Shown: one piece after another, positions 20 through 6,700 of the stretch | Numbering within the stretch: the first letter of the stretch is position 1 | Layout of the letters: every line of letters starts with the position of its first letter | Translations under genes and position numbers: made by a program | DNA from: a virus | Lineage: Duplodnaviria > Heunggongvirae > Uroviricota > Caudoviricetes | IMG/VR virus record: IMGVR_UViG_2534682222_000016 | DNA: 6,700 nt | Strand: one strand, 5' to 3' | The notes under the pieces: model-generated | Databases searched by the model: none | What the model was told of the DNA's origin: nothing | Seen by the model: the letters and a program-made list of their open reading frames with translations, nothing else

Positions 20-1315
20 TTAATTTTTCATTGCTTCGTTATGGGGCATGGTTGGGGCAAACTCGCTTAACTGTGTATTTAACAAAGCTACCTGTGCATT
101 ATTGTTTTCAGACATCCATTTTCCGTATACCTGAAATACCATTTGCGCATCTGCATGGCCCATCTGGTTTGCTATAAATGCCGGGTTAGCACCAGCTGTC
201 AGCGACCAGCAGGCATAAGTATGTCTCGACTGATATGATTTTCGATGGCGGAGTCCGGCACGTTTTATCGCTGCGTCCCACATCTGCCTTATTGAGTCAA
301 CGGTAAAATGGTCACCATAATTTTTTACTCTCGCTGACACTTCAGGTTGAAAAACAAAGGTGCATTTTTGTTTTTCTGTTCTGCCATACTCTCTGAGGTG
401 AACATCAATGATATGCTCTTTGCTCAGTCTCGTTAATGTCATCTGGCTCCGGAGAGCGTCGATTGCTGGCTTAATAAGATGAATGACCCGATTGGTTCCC
501 GCCTGTGTTTTTGGTACCGTGAAACGGTCTTTTGCTAAATTTCTCCTGATCATCATTGTTCCATTTTTCAGATCTATGTCCTCCCATCCAAGTGCACACA
601 GCTCACCAGGGCGAACGCCAGTATAAACAGAAACACACCATAAATTTTTTGCTTGCTGATTTCTGCACGCATCGATAAGACGGATAAATTCCTCCCGCGA
701 AAGAGGATCCGGAATGGTTCTTGATTCCTTTAATGGCGAGATCCCCTTAAGCGGATTATCTGGCAGGTAACCGTTATCAACACCAAACTGGAACACGGCG
801 TTAAGATTTGTCATGTAATTATTTACAGTTACAGCCGATCGCCCTGGTTGTGTAACAATATAGTTACTTTTGGGGATCTGGTATCCAGTCAGTAGCTCTT
901 TACGAACCTCCAGTAATTTTTCTTTATTAATCGATGAGGCAAGATTTTTTTCACCGATTATGCTCAGGATATTTTTGATGACGGCACGGTATGTGTTGAG
1001 TGATGTTTTGGCGACTTCAGTTTCTTTCAGTGCCAGAAATTTTTCAGCCAGTTCTTTTATGGTTAAATCTTGTCGGGCCTCACCAAATTTTTCCAGATTG
1101 CGTGAGGAGGGAAACTGTTTTGCATAGTCGAAAACACCAGTTTTTATTGCGTAACAAACAGAGGAGCGTAGTTCACCTGCAACGCGCCTGTTTTTTGCTG
1201 TGTCAGGAACCCCCAGATTTTCCCTGACTCTTACGCCTTTATAAACAAACCAGATACGTAATTTCCCTCCATGGTTTTCCACGCCTGTCGGATATTTCAT
1301 TTCAACTTCTCTCAT
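20..1315 (-). CDS. int: Phage-type tyrosine integrase (site-specific recombinase), 431 aa
   Basis: Long minus-strand ORF from the track. The C-terminal part contains tyrosine-recombinase catalytic-type residues (Arg in TGVRPGE, RHRKSYQSRHTYA, GHADAQMVFQVYGKW with the putative Tyr nucleophile). It sits at the prophage end, next to an excisionase-like gene. An alternative start is Met6 at 1300. Confidence 0.9.
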   Translation of the reverse strand: MREVEMKYPTGVENHGGKLRIWFVYKGVRVRENLGVPDTAKNRRVAGELRSSVCYAIKTGVFDYAKQFPSSRNLEKFGEARQDLTIKELAEKFLALKETEVAKTSLNTYRAVIKNILSIIGEKNLASSINKEKLLEVRKELLTGYQIPKSNYIVTQPGRSAVTVNNYMTNLNAVFQFGVDNGYLPDNPLKGISPLKESRTIPDPLSREEFIRLIDACRNQQAKNLWCVSVYTGVRPGELCALGWEDIDLKNGTMMIRRNLAKDRFTVPKTQAGTNRVIHLIKPAIDALRSQMTLTRLSKEHIIDVHLREYGRTEKQKCTFVFQPEVSARVKNYGDHFTVDSIRQMWDAAIKRAGLRHRKSYQSRHTYACWSLTAGANPAFIANQMGHADAQMVFQVYGKWMSENNNAQVALLNTQLSEFAPTMPHNEAMKN

Positions 1316-1334: not shown

Positions 1335-1586
1335 TCAAGTAAGATGACGTCTTGGTCTCGCTGATGCCTGGCGCTCAATCCAGCGATCAATTTCTTCCAG
1401 GTTGTAAAAGCATGGACTGTTATCCCATGGCATACCGTCATGAGCGACATGCTTATATTCCCTTCCTTCCATAAACGATTTTTCCCGGGCCTTTTTTAAC
1501 GTACCTTTTTTTATTCCTTTCAGCGCAATTAACTGCTCTTCGGATACCCATTTGCCGGGAGAGACAATCATGATTACTTCGCTCAT
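1335..1586 (-). CDS. xis: Excisionase-like small DNA-binding protein (Xis), 83 aa
   Basis: An 83-aa basic ORF immediately upstream of int on the same strand, 19-bp gap. Purine-rich stretch (AAGAGATAAAGAAA) upstream of the ATG. Position and size fit a lambdoid Xis; the family assignment is by position and composition. Confidence 0.7.
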   Translation of the reverse strand: MSEVIMIVSPGKWVSEEQLIALKGIKKGTLKKAREKSFMEGREYKHVAHDGMPWDNSPCFYNLEEIDRWIERQASARPRRHLT

Positions 1587-1658: not shown

Positions 1659-4130
1659 TTAAGAATCAGCCTGACTCGGGATCAGTTTTTGCCAGATAAC
1701 TGAAACGTATTTTGCCTGGTAACGGGCGTCATCAAGTGCATTATGGCGCTCACCTTCGAATGGAATAGCCGTTCTGGCATCGAAGTCTATGGCTTTCCCC
1801 AGCTCAACGATTGTGCGTACATCGCGATCGTTGTAGTAACGCCACGGGCAGGGGATCCCCTGCCGTTCGTATGAACGGCGCAAAATCGTGTTGTCGAAGT
1901 TGGCTCCATTTCCCCAAACCTGAACAAAAAATTCACCGGAGTTTTCGTCGATAAATTCCCGCAATTGTAACAGTGCATCATCTAACGGGATTTCATCGGT
2001 CATAATGGCAGATTGCGCTTCGCGTGATTGCTTAAGCCACCATTTAATGGTGTTCCGATCAATGACTCCGCCAGCAGTTTCCAGATCGATAGTCTTACTA
2101 AATTCCGGTCCCATATCTCCGGTTTGCGGATCGAAAAATATTGCACCTATTGAGATGATCGGGGCATCAGGATTTTTTCCCATGGTTTCAAGGTCGATCA
2201 TTAGATGGTCACACGTCCTGCTGGTGGATGTGATTTCGTGATGACCGTTCACCTTAATTGAGTGATCTGCCGTCTCGCCAGTTTCATTATCGCTATTGTG
2301 ATGCTGATTGCCGCCAGTGTTCTCCTTGTGTGGATGTTCAGCGCCTTCCATTTCCTCCGGATCATCTTCCTGAACTTCAACCTGATATTCTTCATCGAAT
2401 GTTTCTTGATATGTTGCGTCGCCCATCACCGCGCCACAATCAGGGCAGTTGCCGCCGCCGGTCTGACCGCAGGCGGTGCAGACTTTTTCCACTTCCTGTT
2501 GCGCCACTGGTTCAGGCTGTTTCGTTTCTGGCTCGTTTTGTAACGCATTTGTGCTGTTTTGTTCCGCTTTTTGGTAGTTCCGTTCCGATTCATGCTGGTT
2601 CTGGTTCACAGAATCGCGGGTCTGGATCCCCTTAACCCATTTCGGATCATTCGGGTCACTAATCCCTTCAACAAATTCACCACGTGATGCAGCAAGCAAC
2701 TTATCGGCGTCAGGCTGGCTGATATTGGCTGCCTGCATAATTTTGTTTACTTCGTCAGCGGTAACTTTTATCGGCTCTGGTTGTTCTGAATCTTCAGCGG
2801 TATCTACATTTTGCGGTAAGCCCGTGTATGTGCCATTTTTTCGGGCAAAATATTCTTCTTTTGTGATTTCAGTGGCGCCAGCAGCCAGTGCCTTATCCAG
2901 ACCAGAAAGTTTGTTTGCGCGACCGTATTTTTCTCCGTCCTTATCTGCGAAGAGGAAATAGAACGGCCCCTCACGCTCTACAGATGGTTCAGCTTCCGGC
3001 GCGGTTTCATTTTTTGGGATATCAGATACCTCAGTTTCCACTGCATCAGTTTGTGTTTCTGATGACTGGAGAACATCAACAGTGCCCAGGTCTGTTTCTT
3101 CATTCTCAAACACGCCCTTTGTCGTCAGGTATTCGCAGATATATTTGTTCAGTGCTATGGGATCTTTGTGAATGTCGATCGGACGCTCACGGACAAGGCC
3201 AAAAATAGTCTGGCGGTCGTAGCGAAGGGCATCAGGCTGTTTGCGCATTGATGCCGAGATACGCTTCCAGTCTTCGCGGTCGTTGTCGATAACTTCTTTT
3301 TTTGCCCAGCGATGGATGCTGCCGTCAATGTTTCCGGCATCCACATCACTAGGCCAGAGAGCGTAGGCCAGTTCGTCATCCAGTGTTTTCCATGTCTGCT
3401 TGTATTCGCGATGAATGGCAGCAATGACCGGGCTGATTTTTCCTGTTGAATTTTCAGTGTACTGTTGATTGGCTCTGGCGCGGGCGAGATCAACAACAGA
3501 CGTGTATTTTCCGGTTTCCTTGCGTTCACCTTCGCGACGTTTTTTCCAGATGCGCATCTCTGCCTGAATTTCGGGCCATTTAGCACCAGGAATACATTTA
3601 TGCTTAACCCACCCAATGGCGTGCAACTTAAGCTCCGGATACATGGCGTTAACTTCTGGCATTTTCATCAACGCTTCAACGATATGTCCGTCGAATGTTG
3701 CCATGTCTTCCTGCAACAATTCCTGTGCGCTAATAACCATATCAACGGTGATGTTTTCACATGTGTCGAACTTAACCATGACAGCGTTCTGTACTTCAGG
3801 GGCCAGCTTGTCAAAAGTGACGTTCATCGGATCGGATTCAGTCTCAACCGGGACAAAAGAAGCAGACTCCTCATCCCAGCGGTTTTCCTGCATATATTCA
3901 GCATCCCATGAATCGAGGGCAGGGCGGGGTATGCCAGGTTTATCCTCGCAGACAATAAATTTATAAGCGCAGTCCTGAGCAGCCGGATAATGTTCCAGGA
4001 ACTGCCAGTGAAATTTTGCTCGAGCACGGCGTTCGTCGCCAGCTTCAATGGCTGTGGCTACAGCCACAGCGCCTTCTTCCCTTGTTGCCAGTTCGTCAGG
4101 AATAGCGGCGCAAATAAAGACTTTACTCAT
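1659..4130 (-). CDS. Prophage exonuclease-like protein, 823 aa (often annotated exodeoxyribonuclease VIII/RecE-like; N-terminus YdfE-like), with C-terminal DEDDh 3'-5' exonuclease domain
   Basis: Single uninterrupted 823-aa ORF. C-terminal residues about 640-815 (nt about 1686..2213) carry the DnaQ-like motifs: Exo I MIDLETMG, Exo II WGNGANFD, Exo III HNALDDARYQ. Residues 551-565 (nt 2436..2480) form a CxxC-x7-CxxC zinc ribbon (CTACGQTGGGNCPDC). Residues about 340-640 are strongly acidic and low-complexity. Confidence 0.85.
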   Translation of the reverse strand: MSKVFICAAIPDELATREEGAVAVATAIEAGDERRARAKFHWQFLEHYPAAQDCAYKFIVCEDKPGIPRPALDSWDAEYMQENRWDEESASFVPVETESDPMNVTFDKLAPEVQNAVMVKFDTCENITVDMVISAQELLQEDMATFDGHIVEALMKMPEVNAMYPELKLHAIGWVKHKCIPGAKWPEIQAEMRIWKKRREGERKETGKYTSVVDLARARANQQYTENSTGKISPVIAAIHREYKQTWKTLDDELAYALWPSDVDAGNIDGSIHRWAKKEVIDNDREDWKRISASMRKQPDALRYDRQTIFGLVRERPIDIHKDPIALNKYICEYLTTKGVFENEETDLGTVDVLQSSETQTDAVETEVSDIPKNETAPEAEPSVEREGPFYFLFADKDGEKYGRANKLSGLDKALAAGATEITKEEYFARKNGTYTGLPQNVDTAEDSEQPEPIKVTADEVNKIMQAANISQPDADKLLAASRGEFVEGISDPNDPKWVKGIQTRDSVNQNQHESERNYQKAEQNSTNALQNEPETKQPEPVAQQEVEKVCTACGQTGGGNCPDCGAVMGDATYQETFDEEYQVEVQEDDPEEMEGAEHPHKENTGGNQHHNSDNETGETADHSIKVNGHHEITSTSRTCDHLMIDLETMGKNPDAPIISIGAIFFDPQTGDMGPEFSKTIDLETAGGVIDRNTIKWWLKQSREAQSAIMTDEIPLDDALLQLREFIDENSGEFFVQVWGNGANFDNTILRRSYERQGIPCPWRYYNDRDVRTIVELGKAIDFDARTAIPFEGERHNALDDARYQAKYVSVIWQKLIPSQADS

Positions 4131-4223: not shown

Positions 4224-4415
4224 TTAAAGACCTGCCGGGATTTCGATATTATCCTGGTGAATAACTTTATCGACCGGGTAACAGTTACCGGGAATTTTCT
4301 GTTCGGTTGCTGCAGTCATACACTCCTGCATTGTCCTGTGAACACTGACTGCAATATCAACTGGCTCTCCGGAAACAAGAAAAACTGTCAGAACAAGCGC
4401 AAATGCTGAATTCAT
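4224..4415 (-). CDS. ydfD: YdfD-like small membrane/lysis protein, 63 aa
   Basis: Start chosen at the internal Met (MNSAFALVLTVFLVSG...), giving 63 aa with a hydrophobic N-terminal segment. Its ATG overlaps the dicB stop as ATGA (4412..4415), indicating translational coupling. Position directly downstream of dicB matches Qin ydfD; identity is by position, size and recall. Confidence 0.65.
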   Translation of the reverse strand: MNSAFALVLTVFLVSGEPVDIAVSVHRTMQECMTAATEQKIPGNCYPVDKVIHQDNIEIPAGL

Positions 4416-4600
4416 TGTGCACATCCTTTTGGCATCAGACGTAAACGAGCCAGCATTGAAACAATGCATATTTTATTTAATAGCTCCCGTTCTTGTTTTC
4501 TCTTGTTAATGGCATCTTCAGTAAATACAGGGTTACTGATAGTGACACCAATTTCAAAACAACCTTCAGACGTATTAACGTTTGGTAATAACGTTTTCAT
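4412..4600 (-). CDS. dicB: DicB cell-division inhibitor (MinC-dependent), 62 aa
   Basis: Internal start giving MKTLLPNVNTSEGCFEIGVTISNPVFTEDAINKRKQERELLNKICIVSMLARLRLMPKGCAQ, which I recognise as DicB. GAGGA lies 7 nt upstream of the ATG. Located immediately downstream of DicF as in the Qin dicB operon. Confidence 0.8.
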   Translation of the reverse strand: MKTLLPNVNTSEGCFEIGVTISNPVFTEDAINKRKQERELLNKICIVSMLARLRLMPKGCAQ

Positions 4601-4769
4601 TATCGCGTCCTCAACAATGAATTTTGTGATGCAGTGCCTGGTGCCTCCAGGTGACGTTAACCAGTTAACAATTAACGCCGGATACAGAGAATCCACCCAT
4701 AACACTGTTTTTGGTTTTAACTGTTCCGCGTGCGCTTAGCCGCATTCACCGCATCACAAAATTCACTTT

Positions 4770-4813
4770 AAAAACGGCGGCAGAGCAGTCACGGAGTAAA
4801 ACTGATACCGCCA
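4770..4813 (-). terminator. Intrinsic-terminator-like hairpin plus U-tract forming the DicF 3' end
   Basis: On the minus strand, GGCGG...(nested CAGU/ACUG)...GCCGCCG is followed by UUUUU (plus-strand AAAAA at 4770..4774). dicB follows downstream, so termination must be partial. Confidence 0.55.
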
Positions 4814-4827
4814 AACGTCACCAGAAA
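4772..4827 (-). ncRNA. dicF: DicF small regulatory RNA (Hfq-dependent antisense sRNA targeting ftsZ and other mRNAs)
   Basis: Reverse complement of 4775..4827 reads TTTCTGGTGACGTTTGGCGGTATCAGTTTTACTCCGTGACTGCTCTGCCGCCG followed by TTTTT. This matches the 53-nt DicF sequence as I remember it, and it sits between the ydfA-side genes and dicB. Confidence 0.85.
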
Positions 4828-5303: not shown

Positions 5304-5637
5304 GAACTTGCAGGACGTCATGATCGTAACTTCCATCCAAACCGCGACGGCAAATTGCTTCTCGTATTACCGGAAGCAGTTCGCTGGAAATCTCGGTGCA
5401 TATTTCACCTGCTAATACGCCTGGCTCAAGTGAGAATATTGGTGAACTTACGGTCTTGGTCTCGACAGTTTCAGAGTCAGTGCCAACATTATAAAGCTCA
5501 ACGAAAGCGGTCTTGATTTTCCGGGCCAGATCTTTTGCTGGCTCGCTTGCAATATCTTTCCCGATTTCTCGCAGCACAGAATGCAATGTATGAGCTGCTG
5601 TTTTCTGTACATCAGACGGTAAATCTTTAAATTCCAT
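5272..5637 (-). CDS. Hypothetical protein, 121 aa (position corresponds to ydfB/ydfC of Qin)
   Basis: Minus-strand ORF with codon composition typical of coding sequence. GAGG lies 6 nt upstream of the ATG at 5637. An alternative start at 5649 overlaps the ydfA stop as TGATG. Family assignment is by position only. Confidence 0.6.
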   Translation of the reverse strand: MEFKDLPSDVQKTAAHTLHSVLREIGKDIASEPAKDLARKIKTAFVELYNVGTDSETVETKTVSSPIFSLEPGVLAGEICTEISSELLPVIREAICRRGLDGSYDHDVLQVLRTMVTSLGI

Positions 5638-5648
5638 CGTCAGCCTCA

Positions 5649-5801
5649 TCAGTCAGTGTTTCTGGCTAACCAGCAACGCGCGCCAGATTCGGTTTTAAAC
5701 GTTTTGCTTTTGGTATATGTCATCGCGGTGAACGTACCGTCCTGGTTGGGGAACACGCCACATACCAGAGATTCGCTGTTGCCAAGATCGATAGTATCCA
5801 T
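5649..5801 (-). CDS. ydfA: YdfA-like small protein, 50 aa
   Basis: Internal ATG at 5801 with GAGG 5 nt upstream gives MDTIDLGNSESLVCGVFPNQDGTFTAMTYTKSKTFKTESGARCWLARNTD. The longer track ORF (start 5957) would contain the predicted promoter -35/-10 and operator, so the short form is preferred. First gene after the leftward promoter, as ydfA is in Qin. Confidence 0.65.
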   Translation of the reverse strand: MDTIDLGNSESLVCGVFPNQDGTFTAMTYTKSKTFKTESGARCWLARNTD

Positions 5802-5877
5802 GCTGACCTCATTTCCCCTTAACGCCGGGGTAGCGGAACTGTTTGCTGAGAACACCGTGCGGTGTGTTGATGGAGGT

Positions 5878-5960
5878 AATTTAGATTTCTCATTATTTTT
5901 CGTCAAGGTTTTTTGATGAGAAAACTCAAGTATTGGCGCAAGATAAAGCCAATACATTGA
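5878..5960. promoter_or_regulatory. Leftward early promoter (dicBp-like) with operator-like motif and adjacent inverted repeat
   Basis: On the minus strand: -35 TTGACG (plus 5901..5906), 17-nt spacer, -10 TAAATT (plus 5878..5883). Just upstream lies ATGAGAAAACTCAAGTATTGG (5916..5936), sharing a roughly 20-nt motif with the dicA/dicC intergenic region. It overlaps a perfect 8-bp inverted repeat GTATTGGC (5930..5937) / GCCAATAC (5948..5955), which could also act as a terminator-like hairpin after dicA. Confidence 0.5.
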
Positions 5961-5993
5961 AATGTAAGGCTTTAAAATTTTGTGAAGGGATGA

Positions 5994-6401
5994 TTATTGA
6001 TGCTTGTTGCGTTTGCGAGCCTCTAATAGCTCGGTGAACAGGCGATTAAAATTCTCAACGCGGGCGCGGAGTTCGCTGAGTTGTGCTTGTTGCTCTGATT
6101 TAGGAAGTGCGCGATACAAACGCAGCATCTCTAACTCATCTTCCGATAAGTCTAAGGCACTATCGAGTGAAACAGGGGGAGCTGGTGTTTTGTCCTCGTC
6201 GCCAAACAGTATCCAGGTTGGTGAACATTGCAATACCTCGGCGAGGCGATGCAAATTTTGCCCACGCGGGGCTGTATGGTCACTTTCCCATAATGAAATT
6301 GATGAGCCAGATACGCCAGCAGCTTTGCTTAAACCGTTTTGACTTAAGCCTACCTGCTTACGTCTTTCTCTAATGCGTTGACCTAAAGTTTTCTCGTTCA
6401 T
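5994..6401 (-). CDS. dicA: DicA-like XRE-family HTH repressor (prophage immunity repressor), 135 aa
   Basis: Start at the internal Met gives an N-terminal HTH (MNEKTLGQRIRERRKQVGLSQNGLSKAAGVSGSSISLWE...) followed by LQCSPTWILFGDEDK, which I recognise as DicA/RacR-family. It is divergent from a Cro-like gene. An alternative upstream ATG at 6452 has no RBS and would overlap the rightward promoter. Confidence 0.85.
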   Translation of the reverse strand: MNEKTLGQRIRERRKQVGLSQNGLSKAAGVSGSSISLWESDHTAPRGQNLHRLAEVLQCSPTWILFGDEDKTPAPPVSLDSALDLSEDELEMLRLYRALPKSEQQAQLSELRARVENFNRLFTELLEARKRNKHQ

Positions 6402-6478
6402 ATTTAGATATCTTAATAACCCTTGACTTGAGATTCCTTGAGTGATTAGCATTGAGAAAACTCAATATTGGAGGTGCG
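6402..6478. promoter_or_regulatory. Divergent promoter/operator region of the dicA-dicC immunity switch
   Basis: Rightward candidate promoter: -35 TTGACT (6423..6428), 18-nt spacer, -10 TAGCAT (6447..6452). The inverted repeat TTGAG-AAAA-CTCAA (6452..6465) followed by TATTGG overlaps the -10 and start region. TTGAG half-sites also occur at 6428 and 6438. GGAGG (6470..6474) is the RBS for the plus-strand gene. Confidence 0.6.
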
Positions 6479-6700
6479 ATGTTTAAATCAGACGTAATTA
6501 ATTTTTACGGTACGAAAGCCAAAGTAGCGAAAGCTGCTGGCGTTGACCCATCTGCTGTTTCTCAATGGCAAGAGCTGGTTCCTGAAGGTCGCGCGATGCG
6601 TCTAGCCAGGCAGGCTATAAAGATATGGGACCATTTGTGGCTGCAATACACGAGTGGGCGGACCTTGAATCATACTTTGAGGTGTATCGTGATAATCTGA
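6479..6700 (+). CDS. dicC: DicC/Cro-like small HTH regulator, 73 aa
   Basis: ATG at 6479 is preceded by GGAGG at 4-nt spacing. The N-terminus FYGTKAKVAKAAGVDPSAVSQWQ is a Cro/YdaS-type HTH. In-frame TGA at 6698..6700 ends the gene exactly at the window edge. Divergent from dicA across an operator region. Confidence 0.7.
   Translation: MFKSDVINFYGTKAKVAKAAGVDPSAVSQWQELVPEGRAMRLARQAIKIWDHLWLQYTSGRTLNHTLRCIVII

Follow-up and report, generated by a model that had tools for sequence, protein, structure and literature searches.

A palindromic motif at 5916-5929 of the window (the whole 6.7-kb stretch of DNA that was analysed) is very probably, at a probability of roughly 0.85, one of two DicA operators, namely the promoter-distal one, at dicBp, the equivalent of PL, in a prophage of the Qin/mEp460 type with P22-like immunity. 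This assignment was made by sequence comparison. Site positions, conservation, co-variation with the repressor allele and positional homology to P22 OR/OL were observed and are described below, followed by the hairpin that overlaps the motif and by a model for repression of the locus.

Locus and repressor

The window was assigned to the left arm of a Qin/mEp460-type lambdoid prophage, based on gene content, gene order, annotation and matches to Rfam and Pfam. The genes run int, xis, exonuclease, ydfD, dicB, DicF, ydfA and dicA, then the divergent dicC, an order which matches the Qin dic locus:

20-1315, minus strand: integrase
1335-1586, minus strand: excisionase
1659-4130, minus strand: YdfE/exonuclease gene, 823 aa
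4224-4415, minus strand: ydfD, next after dicB, toxic cargo of the operon (ORF list; Pfam DUF1482)
4412-4600, minus strand: dicB, cell-division inhibitor, toxic cargo of the operon (ORF list; Pfam DicB; annotation)
4775-4826, minus strand: DicF sRNA, inside the repressed operon (Rfam RF00039, 72.5 bits, E = 5e-15)
between DicF and ydfA, minus strand: ydfB/C-like ORF
5649-5801, minus strand: ydfA (DUF1391), first gene of the repressed operon (ORF list; Pfam DUF1391; annotation in CP53 and K-12)
5994-6401, minus strand: dicA-like repressor gene, 135 aa, with an Xre/P22 C2-type helix-turn-helix and no S24 peptidase domain
6479-6700, plus strand: truncated dicC (cro-like), of which residues 1-42 are authentic (Pfam P22_Cro match)

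The repressor product matched Pfam HTH_3, HTH_19 and HTH_31 and was 55-57% identical to K-12 DicA, and its N-terminal domain matched the P22 C2 structures 1adr, 2r1j and 3jxb at E = 8e-16 to 1e-14. The C-terminal S24 autocleavage (RecA-inducible) domain was absent from the 135-aa protein, which aligns to the N-terminal ~70 residues of C2 only and ends in a short, different C-terminus. On these matches, the repressor was classified as the DicA subtype and is expected to operate its switch as C2 does. The DicA-type repressor of K-12, without an autocleavage domain, is controlled by the antirepressor Rem (PMC10448788).

Comparison with mEp460 DicC revealed identity over residues 1-42 and a break at 6605. 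From 6605 on, the dicC ORF consists of unrelated ybgA/DUF1722-like sequence (megablast of 6603-6700 led to ybgA), and the fused dicC-ybgA-like protein is present in many assemblies. With dicC cut after codon 42, the Cro arm of the switch is probably dead, so that the locus would be held in the repressed state. The mEp460-type allele is widespread: at least 80% of window positions 5600-6700, which span the immunity region, was present in 777 of 5426 complete E. coli genomes, and relatives of the repressor are encoded on 357 IMG/VR viral stretches. One contig of an E. coli assembly (L098; GCA_020553905.1) was 100% identical to the window, and the prophage adjoins rspB there.

Palindromes at the switch and at the leftward promoter

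The motif ATGAGAAAACTCAAGTATTGG was located at 5916-5936. An earlier note on this DNA had taken it for one of two near-identical 20-mers, the other lying in the dicA/dicC intergenic region. This held for the 13-nt core TGAGAAAACTCAA at 5917-5929, which recurs exactly at 6453-6465 and is the sole exact direct 13-mer repeat of the window, but not for the 20-mers as units, since CTCAAgTATTGG and CTCAATATTGG are set apart by a 1-nt indel. The conserved unit is a palindrome of 14-18 bp, TTGAG-N4-CTCAA, and the flank is unconserved. The TATTGG (CCAATA) flank was rejected as part of the site, being not conserved in the loci L090, L006 or L007; in the switch it is the spacer before the dicC Shine-Dalgarno sequence, and at dicBp it is a hairpin arm.

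Screening of the 6.7 kb for the palindrome at two mismatches or fewer yielded five matches, at 5880-5893, 5916-5929, 6403-6416, 6428-6441 and 6452-6465. All five fall inside two regulatory regions that together make up ~115 bp, three of them between dicA and dicC and two at the leftward promoter. A possible further copy in the 5' coding region of dicA (6384-6396, 3 mismatches to the 13-mer) was discarded; it deviates from the palindrome at 4 positions and lacks conservation (MNEK versus MNEM codons).

The repeat could be a chance or historical similarity, left over from AT-rich intergenic homology and without present function. Taken alone, the exact 13-mer repeat is not significant, being present in 34.5% of dinucleotide shuffles of the window, and the number of palindrome matches (5) is no excess over the shuffle mean of 3.7. 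The non-randomness follows instead from the palindromic nature of the core, from the confinement of all five matches to regulatory regions (~115 bp of 6700) and from the conservation of the core in relatives. P22 and K-12 also have the sites at homologous positions, the motif changes along with the repressor allele, the cores are invariant and the flanks variable, and the same region is present in mEp460, a functional temperate phage with homologues of dicB, dicF, dicAC and rem (PMC10448788). A chance origin is consequently considered extremely improbable, and the palindromes are treated below as predicted operators. Those at the leftward promoter are arranged as follows:

5878-5906, minus strand: predicted dicBp-equivalent (PL-like) promoter; -35 TTGACG at 5901-5906, 17-nt spacer, -10 TAAATT at 5878-5883; 9/12 matches
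5916-5929: predicted promoter-distal DicA operator, the copy flagged earlier; core ATGAGAAAACTCAA on the plus strand, P22-style 18-bp site at 5914-5931
5880-5893: predicted promoter-proximal DicA operator; core TTTAGATTTCTCAT on the plus strand, ATGAGAAATCTAAA in dicA sense

The pair of hexamers noticed earlier beside the motif was recovered as TTGACG-17-TAAATT (minus strand, 5906..5878, with the same 9 of 12 matches). Transcription from dicBp would start near 5871, and from gene order and strand the promoter is predicted to drive ydfA, the ydfB/C-like gene, DicF, dicB and ydfD. Its -35 hexamer aligns with TTGACC of K-12 and with TTGACC of P22 PL. Megablast homology of the window to K-12-type strains ends at ~5872, just downstream of the -10, and just 3' of the -10 the homology to K-12 begins again, at CATCAACACACCGCACGG. 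Since the K-12 homology stops at ~5872, the promoter, the operators and the repressor gene move together as a single immunity module.

The distal site lies 9 bp upstream of the dicBp -35, has 1 mismatch to TTGAG-N4-CTCAA, contains the exact 13-mer shared with 6453-6465, is conserved across 36 sequence variants and has the distal operator of P22 PL as its counterpart in the alignment. The proximal site, the inverted-repeat partner of 5916-5932 with 2 mismatches to the palindrome, overlaps both the -10 hexamer and the spacer of the promoter. It reads ATGAGAAAACTAAAT in 36/36 variants from relatives; the copy in the window carries a rare spacer substitution at 5885. Measured between centres, the two sites are separated by 36 bp and enclose the -35; in K-12 and P22 the distance is 35 bp. 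The motif had been placed just upstream of the promoter, which is correct for the distal copy, but the second copy at 5880-5893, overlapping the -10 and the likelier occluding site, had been missed. The site that blocks RNA polymerase is probably this proximal one.

A third operator at dicBp, as P22 OL3 or as implied by the "three operators" of the literature, was sought there and nothing convincing was found. The palindrome TACATT-TC-AATGTA (~5953-5966) was considered for this role and rejected: it is conserved, at a distance of 37 bp from the distal operator, but has half-sites without any relation to TTGAG, and it constitutes the inner stem of an alternative hairpin (see below).

The remaining palindromes belong to the dicA/dicC switch:

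6452-6465: predicted switch operator nearest dicC (Oc/OR1-like); TTGAGAAAACTCAA, a perfect palindrome; 16-bp form ATTGAGAAAACTCAAT
6428-6441: predicted middle switch operator (Om/OR2-like); TTGAGATTCCTTGA, in the dicCp spacer; weaker palindrome, 2 mismatches
6403-6416: predicted switch operator by the dicA start codon (Oa/OR3-like); TTTAGATATCTTAA, 2 mismatches to the palindrome
6423-6452, plus strand: predicted dicCp (PR-like) promoter; TTGACT, 18-nt spacer, TAGCAT; 9/12 matches

The three palindromes overlap dicCp, with centres 24-25 bp apart, and each aligns with a site of P22 OR. The site at 6452-6465, which abuts the dicCp -10, covers the expected transcription start and has an essentially invariant core in 14 variants, aligns with the cro-adjacent site; the site at 6428-6441 aligns with the middle site CTAAAGATTCCTTTAG; and the site at 6403-6416, with 82% identity to the proximal dicBp site over 17 nt, aligns with the c2-adjacent site. 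In the same alignment, the dicCp -35 is identical to the P22 PR -35. DicA of K-12 binds Oc (TTGTTAGTCATAACTAACAA) in vivo, and a single A-to-C change abolishes this binding (Yun et al. 2012, PMC3441716); no DicA binding in vivo was found at K-12 Om and Oa (PMC3441716). Given this lack of binding at Om and Oa, the weaker sites of the window, 6403-6416 and 6428-6441, may also be non-functional on their own.

Comparison across repressor alleles and with known systems

For the comparison within the allele, 36 distinct post-dicA and 14 distinct switch variants were collected from 80 IMG/VR loci plus genomes, the functional phage mEp460 included. Operator cores and promoter hexamers were nearly invariant and the flanks varied. 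Alignment of both copies with these homologous prophages, which the earlier note had proposed as a check, resulted in the consensus TTGAG-(A/T)4-CTCAA, and the motif was conserved at both positions in the related prophages.

The comparison between alleles covered 13 loci in 7 repressor allele groups, ranging from 100% down to 44% repressor identity and including Buttiauxella, Citrobacter, Yersinia, Rosenbergiella, E. whittamii and others. For each locus, the best 16-mer common to the switch and post-dicA regions was determined in regions of fixed length. In nearly every one of the 13 loci, this 16-mer was all or part of the operator palindrome of the locus itself. Matches within an allele exceeded those across alleles (mean 13.6 versus 12.1 of 16; Mann-Whitney p = 2e-4, with one representative for each of only 7 independent allele groups). 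A pair of sites on the two sides of a -35-like hexamer, spaced by 34-36 bp, was found in 11/13 loci; in the G-group (L015, L016), site curation was visual. Recognition helix and half-site change together: S(G/D)SSISLWE accompanies TTGAG in the window and in Buttiauxella, SHVSVSQWE accompanies GTTAGT in K-12, and SNVAISQWE accompanies TTAAG in P22.

The Qin prophage of K-12 (L001) has the same gene order (dicC/dicA/dicBp/ydfA/DicF/dicB/ydfD) and a 135-aa repressor without a cleavage domain. It likewise has Oc beside dicC, three switch palindromes and two Oc-like sites 35-36 bp apart around the dicBp -35 TTGACC, and the homology of its ydfA leader begins immediately past the -10. The two differ in immunity specificity: the DicA proteins are 55-57% identical, the helix reads SGSSISLWE in the window and SHVSVSQWE in K-12, and the operator is TTGAG-TTTT-CTCAA in the window and TTGTTAGT-CATA-ACTAACAA in K-12. 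K-12 Oc (TTGTTAGTCATAACTAACAA) could not be matched in any part of the window with up to 6 mismatches allowed, which indicates a different immunity allele at the same type of locus. Furthermore, no hairpin lies between dicA and dicBp in K-12, whereas the window has one, together with a truncated dicC and an intact left arm (int, xis, exonuclease).

In the P22 genome (L102), TTAAG-N4-CTTAA sites were found three times between c2 and cro; PL has two such sites, 35 bp from each other on the two sides of the -35 TTGACC, and a third beside them. The repressors share a homologous N-terminal DNA-binding domain (E = 8e-16), and the P22 sites resemble those of the window in being symmetric over 18 bp with a non-contacted 4-bp centre (PMC4267663). 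The window switch aligns site for site with OR and dicBp with PL/OL, including the -35 hexamers and the spacing of 35-36 bp, for example AATACTTGAGTTTTCTCATCAAAAAACCTTGAC of the window with AATATTTAAGTTTTCTTCAAAAATACACTTGAC of P22. The half-sites differ (TTGAG in the window, TTAAG in P22), as does the cargo of the left operon, which includes DicF and dicB in the window. Whereas P22 has a third PL operator, none was recognisable at dicBp of the window, where a hairpin occupies that position. C2 has 216 aa with a C-terminal S24/RecA-cleavable domain, unlike the 135-aa DicA, which lacks it (PMC10448788). The P22 repressor binds as a dimer to 18-bp sites; its contacts are at positions 2-7 and 12-17, and its recognition of the four central bp is indirect, with A-tracts preferred (PMC4267663). 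The AAAA/TTTT centres of the window sites fit this indirect-readout mode.

In the immunity region (5800-6604), the phages mEp460 (LR597641) and HannyBb are 99.4-99.5% identical to the window and share its operators, promoter and hairpin. Both phages differ from it in having a full-length dicC, followed by replication genes, and in the spacer of the proximal operator, where the equivalent of window position 5885 is A and not T (dicA sense).

In lambda and P22, repressor and Cro share operators, so a use of the window sites by Cro-like DicC would be complementary to operator function for DicA. A chief use by DicC, with the motif serving DicC control of the left operon, is very unlikely. ChIP-seq of K-12 DicC had its strongest signal at the dic locus, at its own promoter, with sites inferred on either side of dicA, and DicC prefers TT(A/C/T)G...C(G/A/T)AA palindromes (PMC11430063), both of which favour a role for DicC. 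Against this, deletion of dicA derepressed dicBp-lacZ 22-fold in K-12, while deletion of dicC was without effect (PMC10448788), and DicC of the window, truncated after codon 42, is unlikely to be functional.

That the same operator serves the switch and the leftward promoter in the style of lambda OL/OR, as suggested earlier, agrees well with the gene order, the homology to P22 C2, the alignment with P22 OR and PL/OL and the allele co-variation. Control of the switch and of the toxic operon by one repressor is the already published K-12 model, with reporter and ChIP support, and the window represents another immunity variant of it. As cited in PMC10448788, Bejar, Bouche and Bouche had postulated in 1988 that dicCp and dicBp of K-12 both carry operator-like sequences. 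Reg-Seq graded the DicA site for dicB as low-evidence with the binding location unknown (PMC7567609), so that even the K-12 dicBp sites are sequence predictions, and a cross-allele map of the two dicBp sites is useful. In the literature searched, no description of the operators of the mEp460-type allele was found. The predicted pair at dicBp is thus a P22/Qin-type OL operator pair in an immunity allele not described before, and its design is a known one; nothing is conceptually added to the P22/lambda paradigm. The comparison provides a probable operator set for the mEp460-type DicA allele, TTGAG-(A/T)4-CTCAA at three switch sites and two dicBp sites, and a concrete map, open to testing, of two sites that enclose the -35 at a spacing of 34-36 bp. 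DicF and DicB, both encoded in the controlled operon, affect cell division, metabolism and phage resistance.

The hairpin after dicA and a model of repression

Two mutually exclusive hairpins can be drawn between dicA and the leftward promoter:

5925-5961, minus strand: hairpin after dicA, candidate intrinsic terminator; 13-bp bulged stem in the RNA, inner 8-bp arms 5948-5955/5930-5937, 10-nt loop
5944-5974, minus strand: alternative hairpin; arms UAAAGCC/GGCUUUA; sequence invariant in all relatives

The 8-bp inverted repeat said to overlap the motif was exact, with GTATTGGC at 5930-5937 and GCCAATAC at 5948-5955. In the first hairpin, the TTGAG half of the distal operator supplies the 3' side of the outer 5-bp stem, and the U-rich tail UUUUCUCA (5924-5917) is the centre and right half of the same operator. 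The hairpin folded at -12.4 to -13.3 kcal/mol with a z-score of -4.25, and 0/200 shuffles folded as well. A relaxed hairpin-plus-U scan returned the 13-bp bulged stem, whose inner 8 bp include 4 G-C pairs, and the tail GUUUUCUC with its U-tract UUUUCUC (matched by none of 200 shuffles); the standard consensus scan for terminators called 0 sites.

A T-to-C change in the stem, giving an A.C mismatch, was present in 13/82 related loci; the remaining changes keep the pairing only as wobbles, and compensatory double changes in the stem were not seen among the related loci. In the 96%-identical L090-type allele the 3' arm is missing, and conservation of the hairpin as one structure is partial. In this L090-type allele, the alternative hairpin (-10.5 kcal/mol), followed by UUUUGCAU, is the best terminator candidate; its tail in the window is poorer (UCUUGCG). 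Clear post-dicA terminators were found in the distant alleles L015 (-16.1) and L006 (-14.1). No post-dicA hairpin or terminator was found in K-12, and no terminator in L008. Selection may act here for some terminator, not for this particular stem. The suggestion that the repeat doubles as the dicA terminator was therefore borne out in part: a good hairpin with a U-tract that beats shuffles is present, but the standard scan was negative, the loop of 10 nt speaks against a terminator and the hairpin is not conserved as one structure. Terminator function is plausible, with the balance tilting slightly against it.

The lambda terminator tIMM ends the repressor transcript before OL/PL. The window resembles this arrangement in having a hairpin and a U-tract between the repressor gene and the leftward operators, and differs from it in that the candidate terminator overlaps the distal operator and is weak by consensus criteria.

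This overlap allows a reading in which the flagged copy is mainly the dicA terminator, contributing 3' stem and U-tract, with a secondary likeness to an operator and with dicBp repressed by the -10-overlapping site alone. TTGAG does pair in the outer stem and TTTTCTC does form the U-tract, a repressor bound to the site, upstream of the -35, would not necessarily block polymerase, and the Buttiauxella locus L006 has the same hairpin-into-operator geometry (-14.1 kcal/mol). However, an operator-like palindrome is retained at the same position, with no hairpin, in K-12, P22 and several further alleles, and the palindrome core is more conserved than the hairpin arms. Both roles are also compatible with each other, and a site that is mainly terminator is unlikely.

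With the flagged copy taken as the distal DicA operator, the following model is proposed, in which DicA binding, cooperativity and the choice of the occluding site are deduced from site arrangement and homology. A DicA dimer would bind symmetric sites of ~18 bp through contacts with the TTGAG/CTCAA half-sites and an indirect readout of the A/T-rich 4-bp centre. Dimers would occupy five sites, three in the switch overlapping dicCp and two bracketing the dicBp -35. DicA at 6452-6465 would block dicCp, and DicA at the proximal site 5880-5893, covering -10 and spacer, would exclude RNA polymerase from dicBp; the distal site 5916-5929 probably adds occupancy via cooperative binding. As a result, ydfA, DicF, dicB and ydfD would be silent while dicA is expressed. 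Secondarily, and as a weaker part of the model, the hairpin and U-tract (5925-5961, tail 5917-5924) may end the dicA transcript and thereby spare the toxic operon from read-through.

The overlap of terminator and distal operator might also represent a functional coupling, which we regard as unlikely. DicA on the distal operator would then act as a roadblock enforcing termination of its own transcript or, conversely, read-through from dicA would strip DicA from dicBp; if true, repressor occupancy would be linked to insulation of the toxic operon. Related to this, and equally speculative, the substitution at 5885 in the proximal operator could be an adaptive change that retunes the leaky expression of DicF/DicB while the prophage is confined to the repressed state. 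This substitution was seen only in some of the dicC-truncated lineages.

Switch genes and the deleted prophage form

The features of the switch region considered here are the following.

5994–6452, minus strand: dicA, called as 152 aa (ATG at 6452) or 135 aa (ATG at 6401)
6403–6416: predicted switch operator (Oa/OR3-like)
6605–6700, plus strand: ybgA-like sequence continuing the dicC frame

Gene callers are split between the two dicA starts, and homology to K-12 DicA and P22 C2 argues for the shorter product. Upstream of the ATG at 6401, which adjoins the site at 6403–6416, neither a Shine–Dalgarno sequence nor a consensus promoter was found. The region is reminiscent of a weak, activator-dependent, possibly leaderless arrangement of the PRM type, such as was suggested for K-12 dicA (PMC3441716).

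In the window, dicC retains only codons 1–42 and is fused in frame from there to a sequence with 98% identity to chromosomal ybgA (DUF1722), giving a chimeric ORF of 73 aa, the end of which coincides with the window edge. With dicC truncated, the Cro arm probably no longer functions in the window's switch. In L097 (8001–9752), one of the compared sequences, the dicC chimera is followed by an element of the IS3 family and by a fragment of DUF1722, and the phage replication genes are absent, whereas these are present in mEp460, a functional temperate phage with the same immunity allele and full-length dicC. The chimeric protein has index entries in 129 blocks of the assembly collection, which makes the deleted prophage form a common one.

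Substitution in the promoter-proximal operator

A rare change was observed at 5885: the four central base pairs of the promoter-proximal operator (5880–5893, a predicted DicA site at dicBp) read AAAT instead of AAAA (dicA sense). The AAAT centre is carried by the E. coli contig L098, the source of the window, and by L099; it was found neither in L097, L100 and CP53 nor in any of 36 distinct downstream-region variants, which were obtained from 84 loci (IMG/VR, two MAGs, CP53, mEp460). As the P22 repressor reads central bases indirectly, the change could, by analogy, alter DicA affinity; the same position also belongs to the promoter spacer.

Palindromes and inverted repeats

Further symmetrical elements were recorded as follows.

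1847–1864: perfect 18-bp palindrome GGCAGGGGATCCCCTGCC within the exonuclease (YdfE-like) coding sequence
4618–4636 / 4747–4765: long-range inverted repeat, 19 nt, 95% complementary, arms separated by 110 nt
5953–5966: palindrome TACATT-TC-AATGTA, unchanged across all variants of the window's allele
6313–6326 / 6530–6543: perfect 14-nt inverted repeat in the dicA and dicC coding sequences (ACGCCAGCAGCTTT / AAAGCTGCTGGCGT)

The alternative hairpin (5944–5974, minus strand) has as its inner stem the palindrome at 5953–5966, which is conserved in part in Buttiauxella. The centre of this palindrome lies 37 bp from the distal operator (5916–5929), the same spacing, to within 1 bp, as between the two operators, and its half-sites bear no relation to TTGAG; it is possibly a protein-binding site.

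The long-range repeat is located between DicF and dicB, directly 3' of DicF on the transcript. Because RNase III and RNase E have been reported in the literature to process DicF, the duplex of the repeat's arms could be an RNase III substrate.

A KAAGV peptide occurs in the helix-turn-helix of both the dicA and dicC products, encoded by identical codons on opposite strands. The 14-nt repeat joining the two genes could have originated by chance, shared ancestry or gene conversion.
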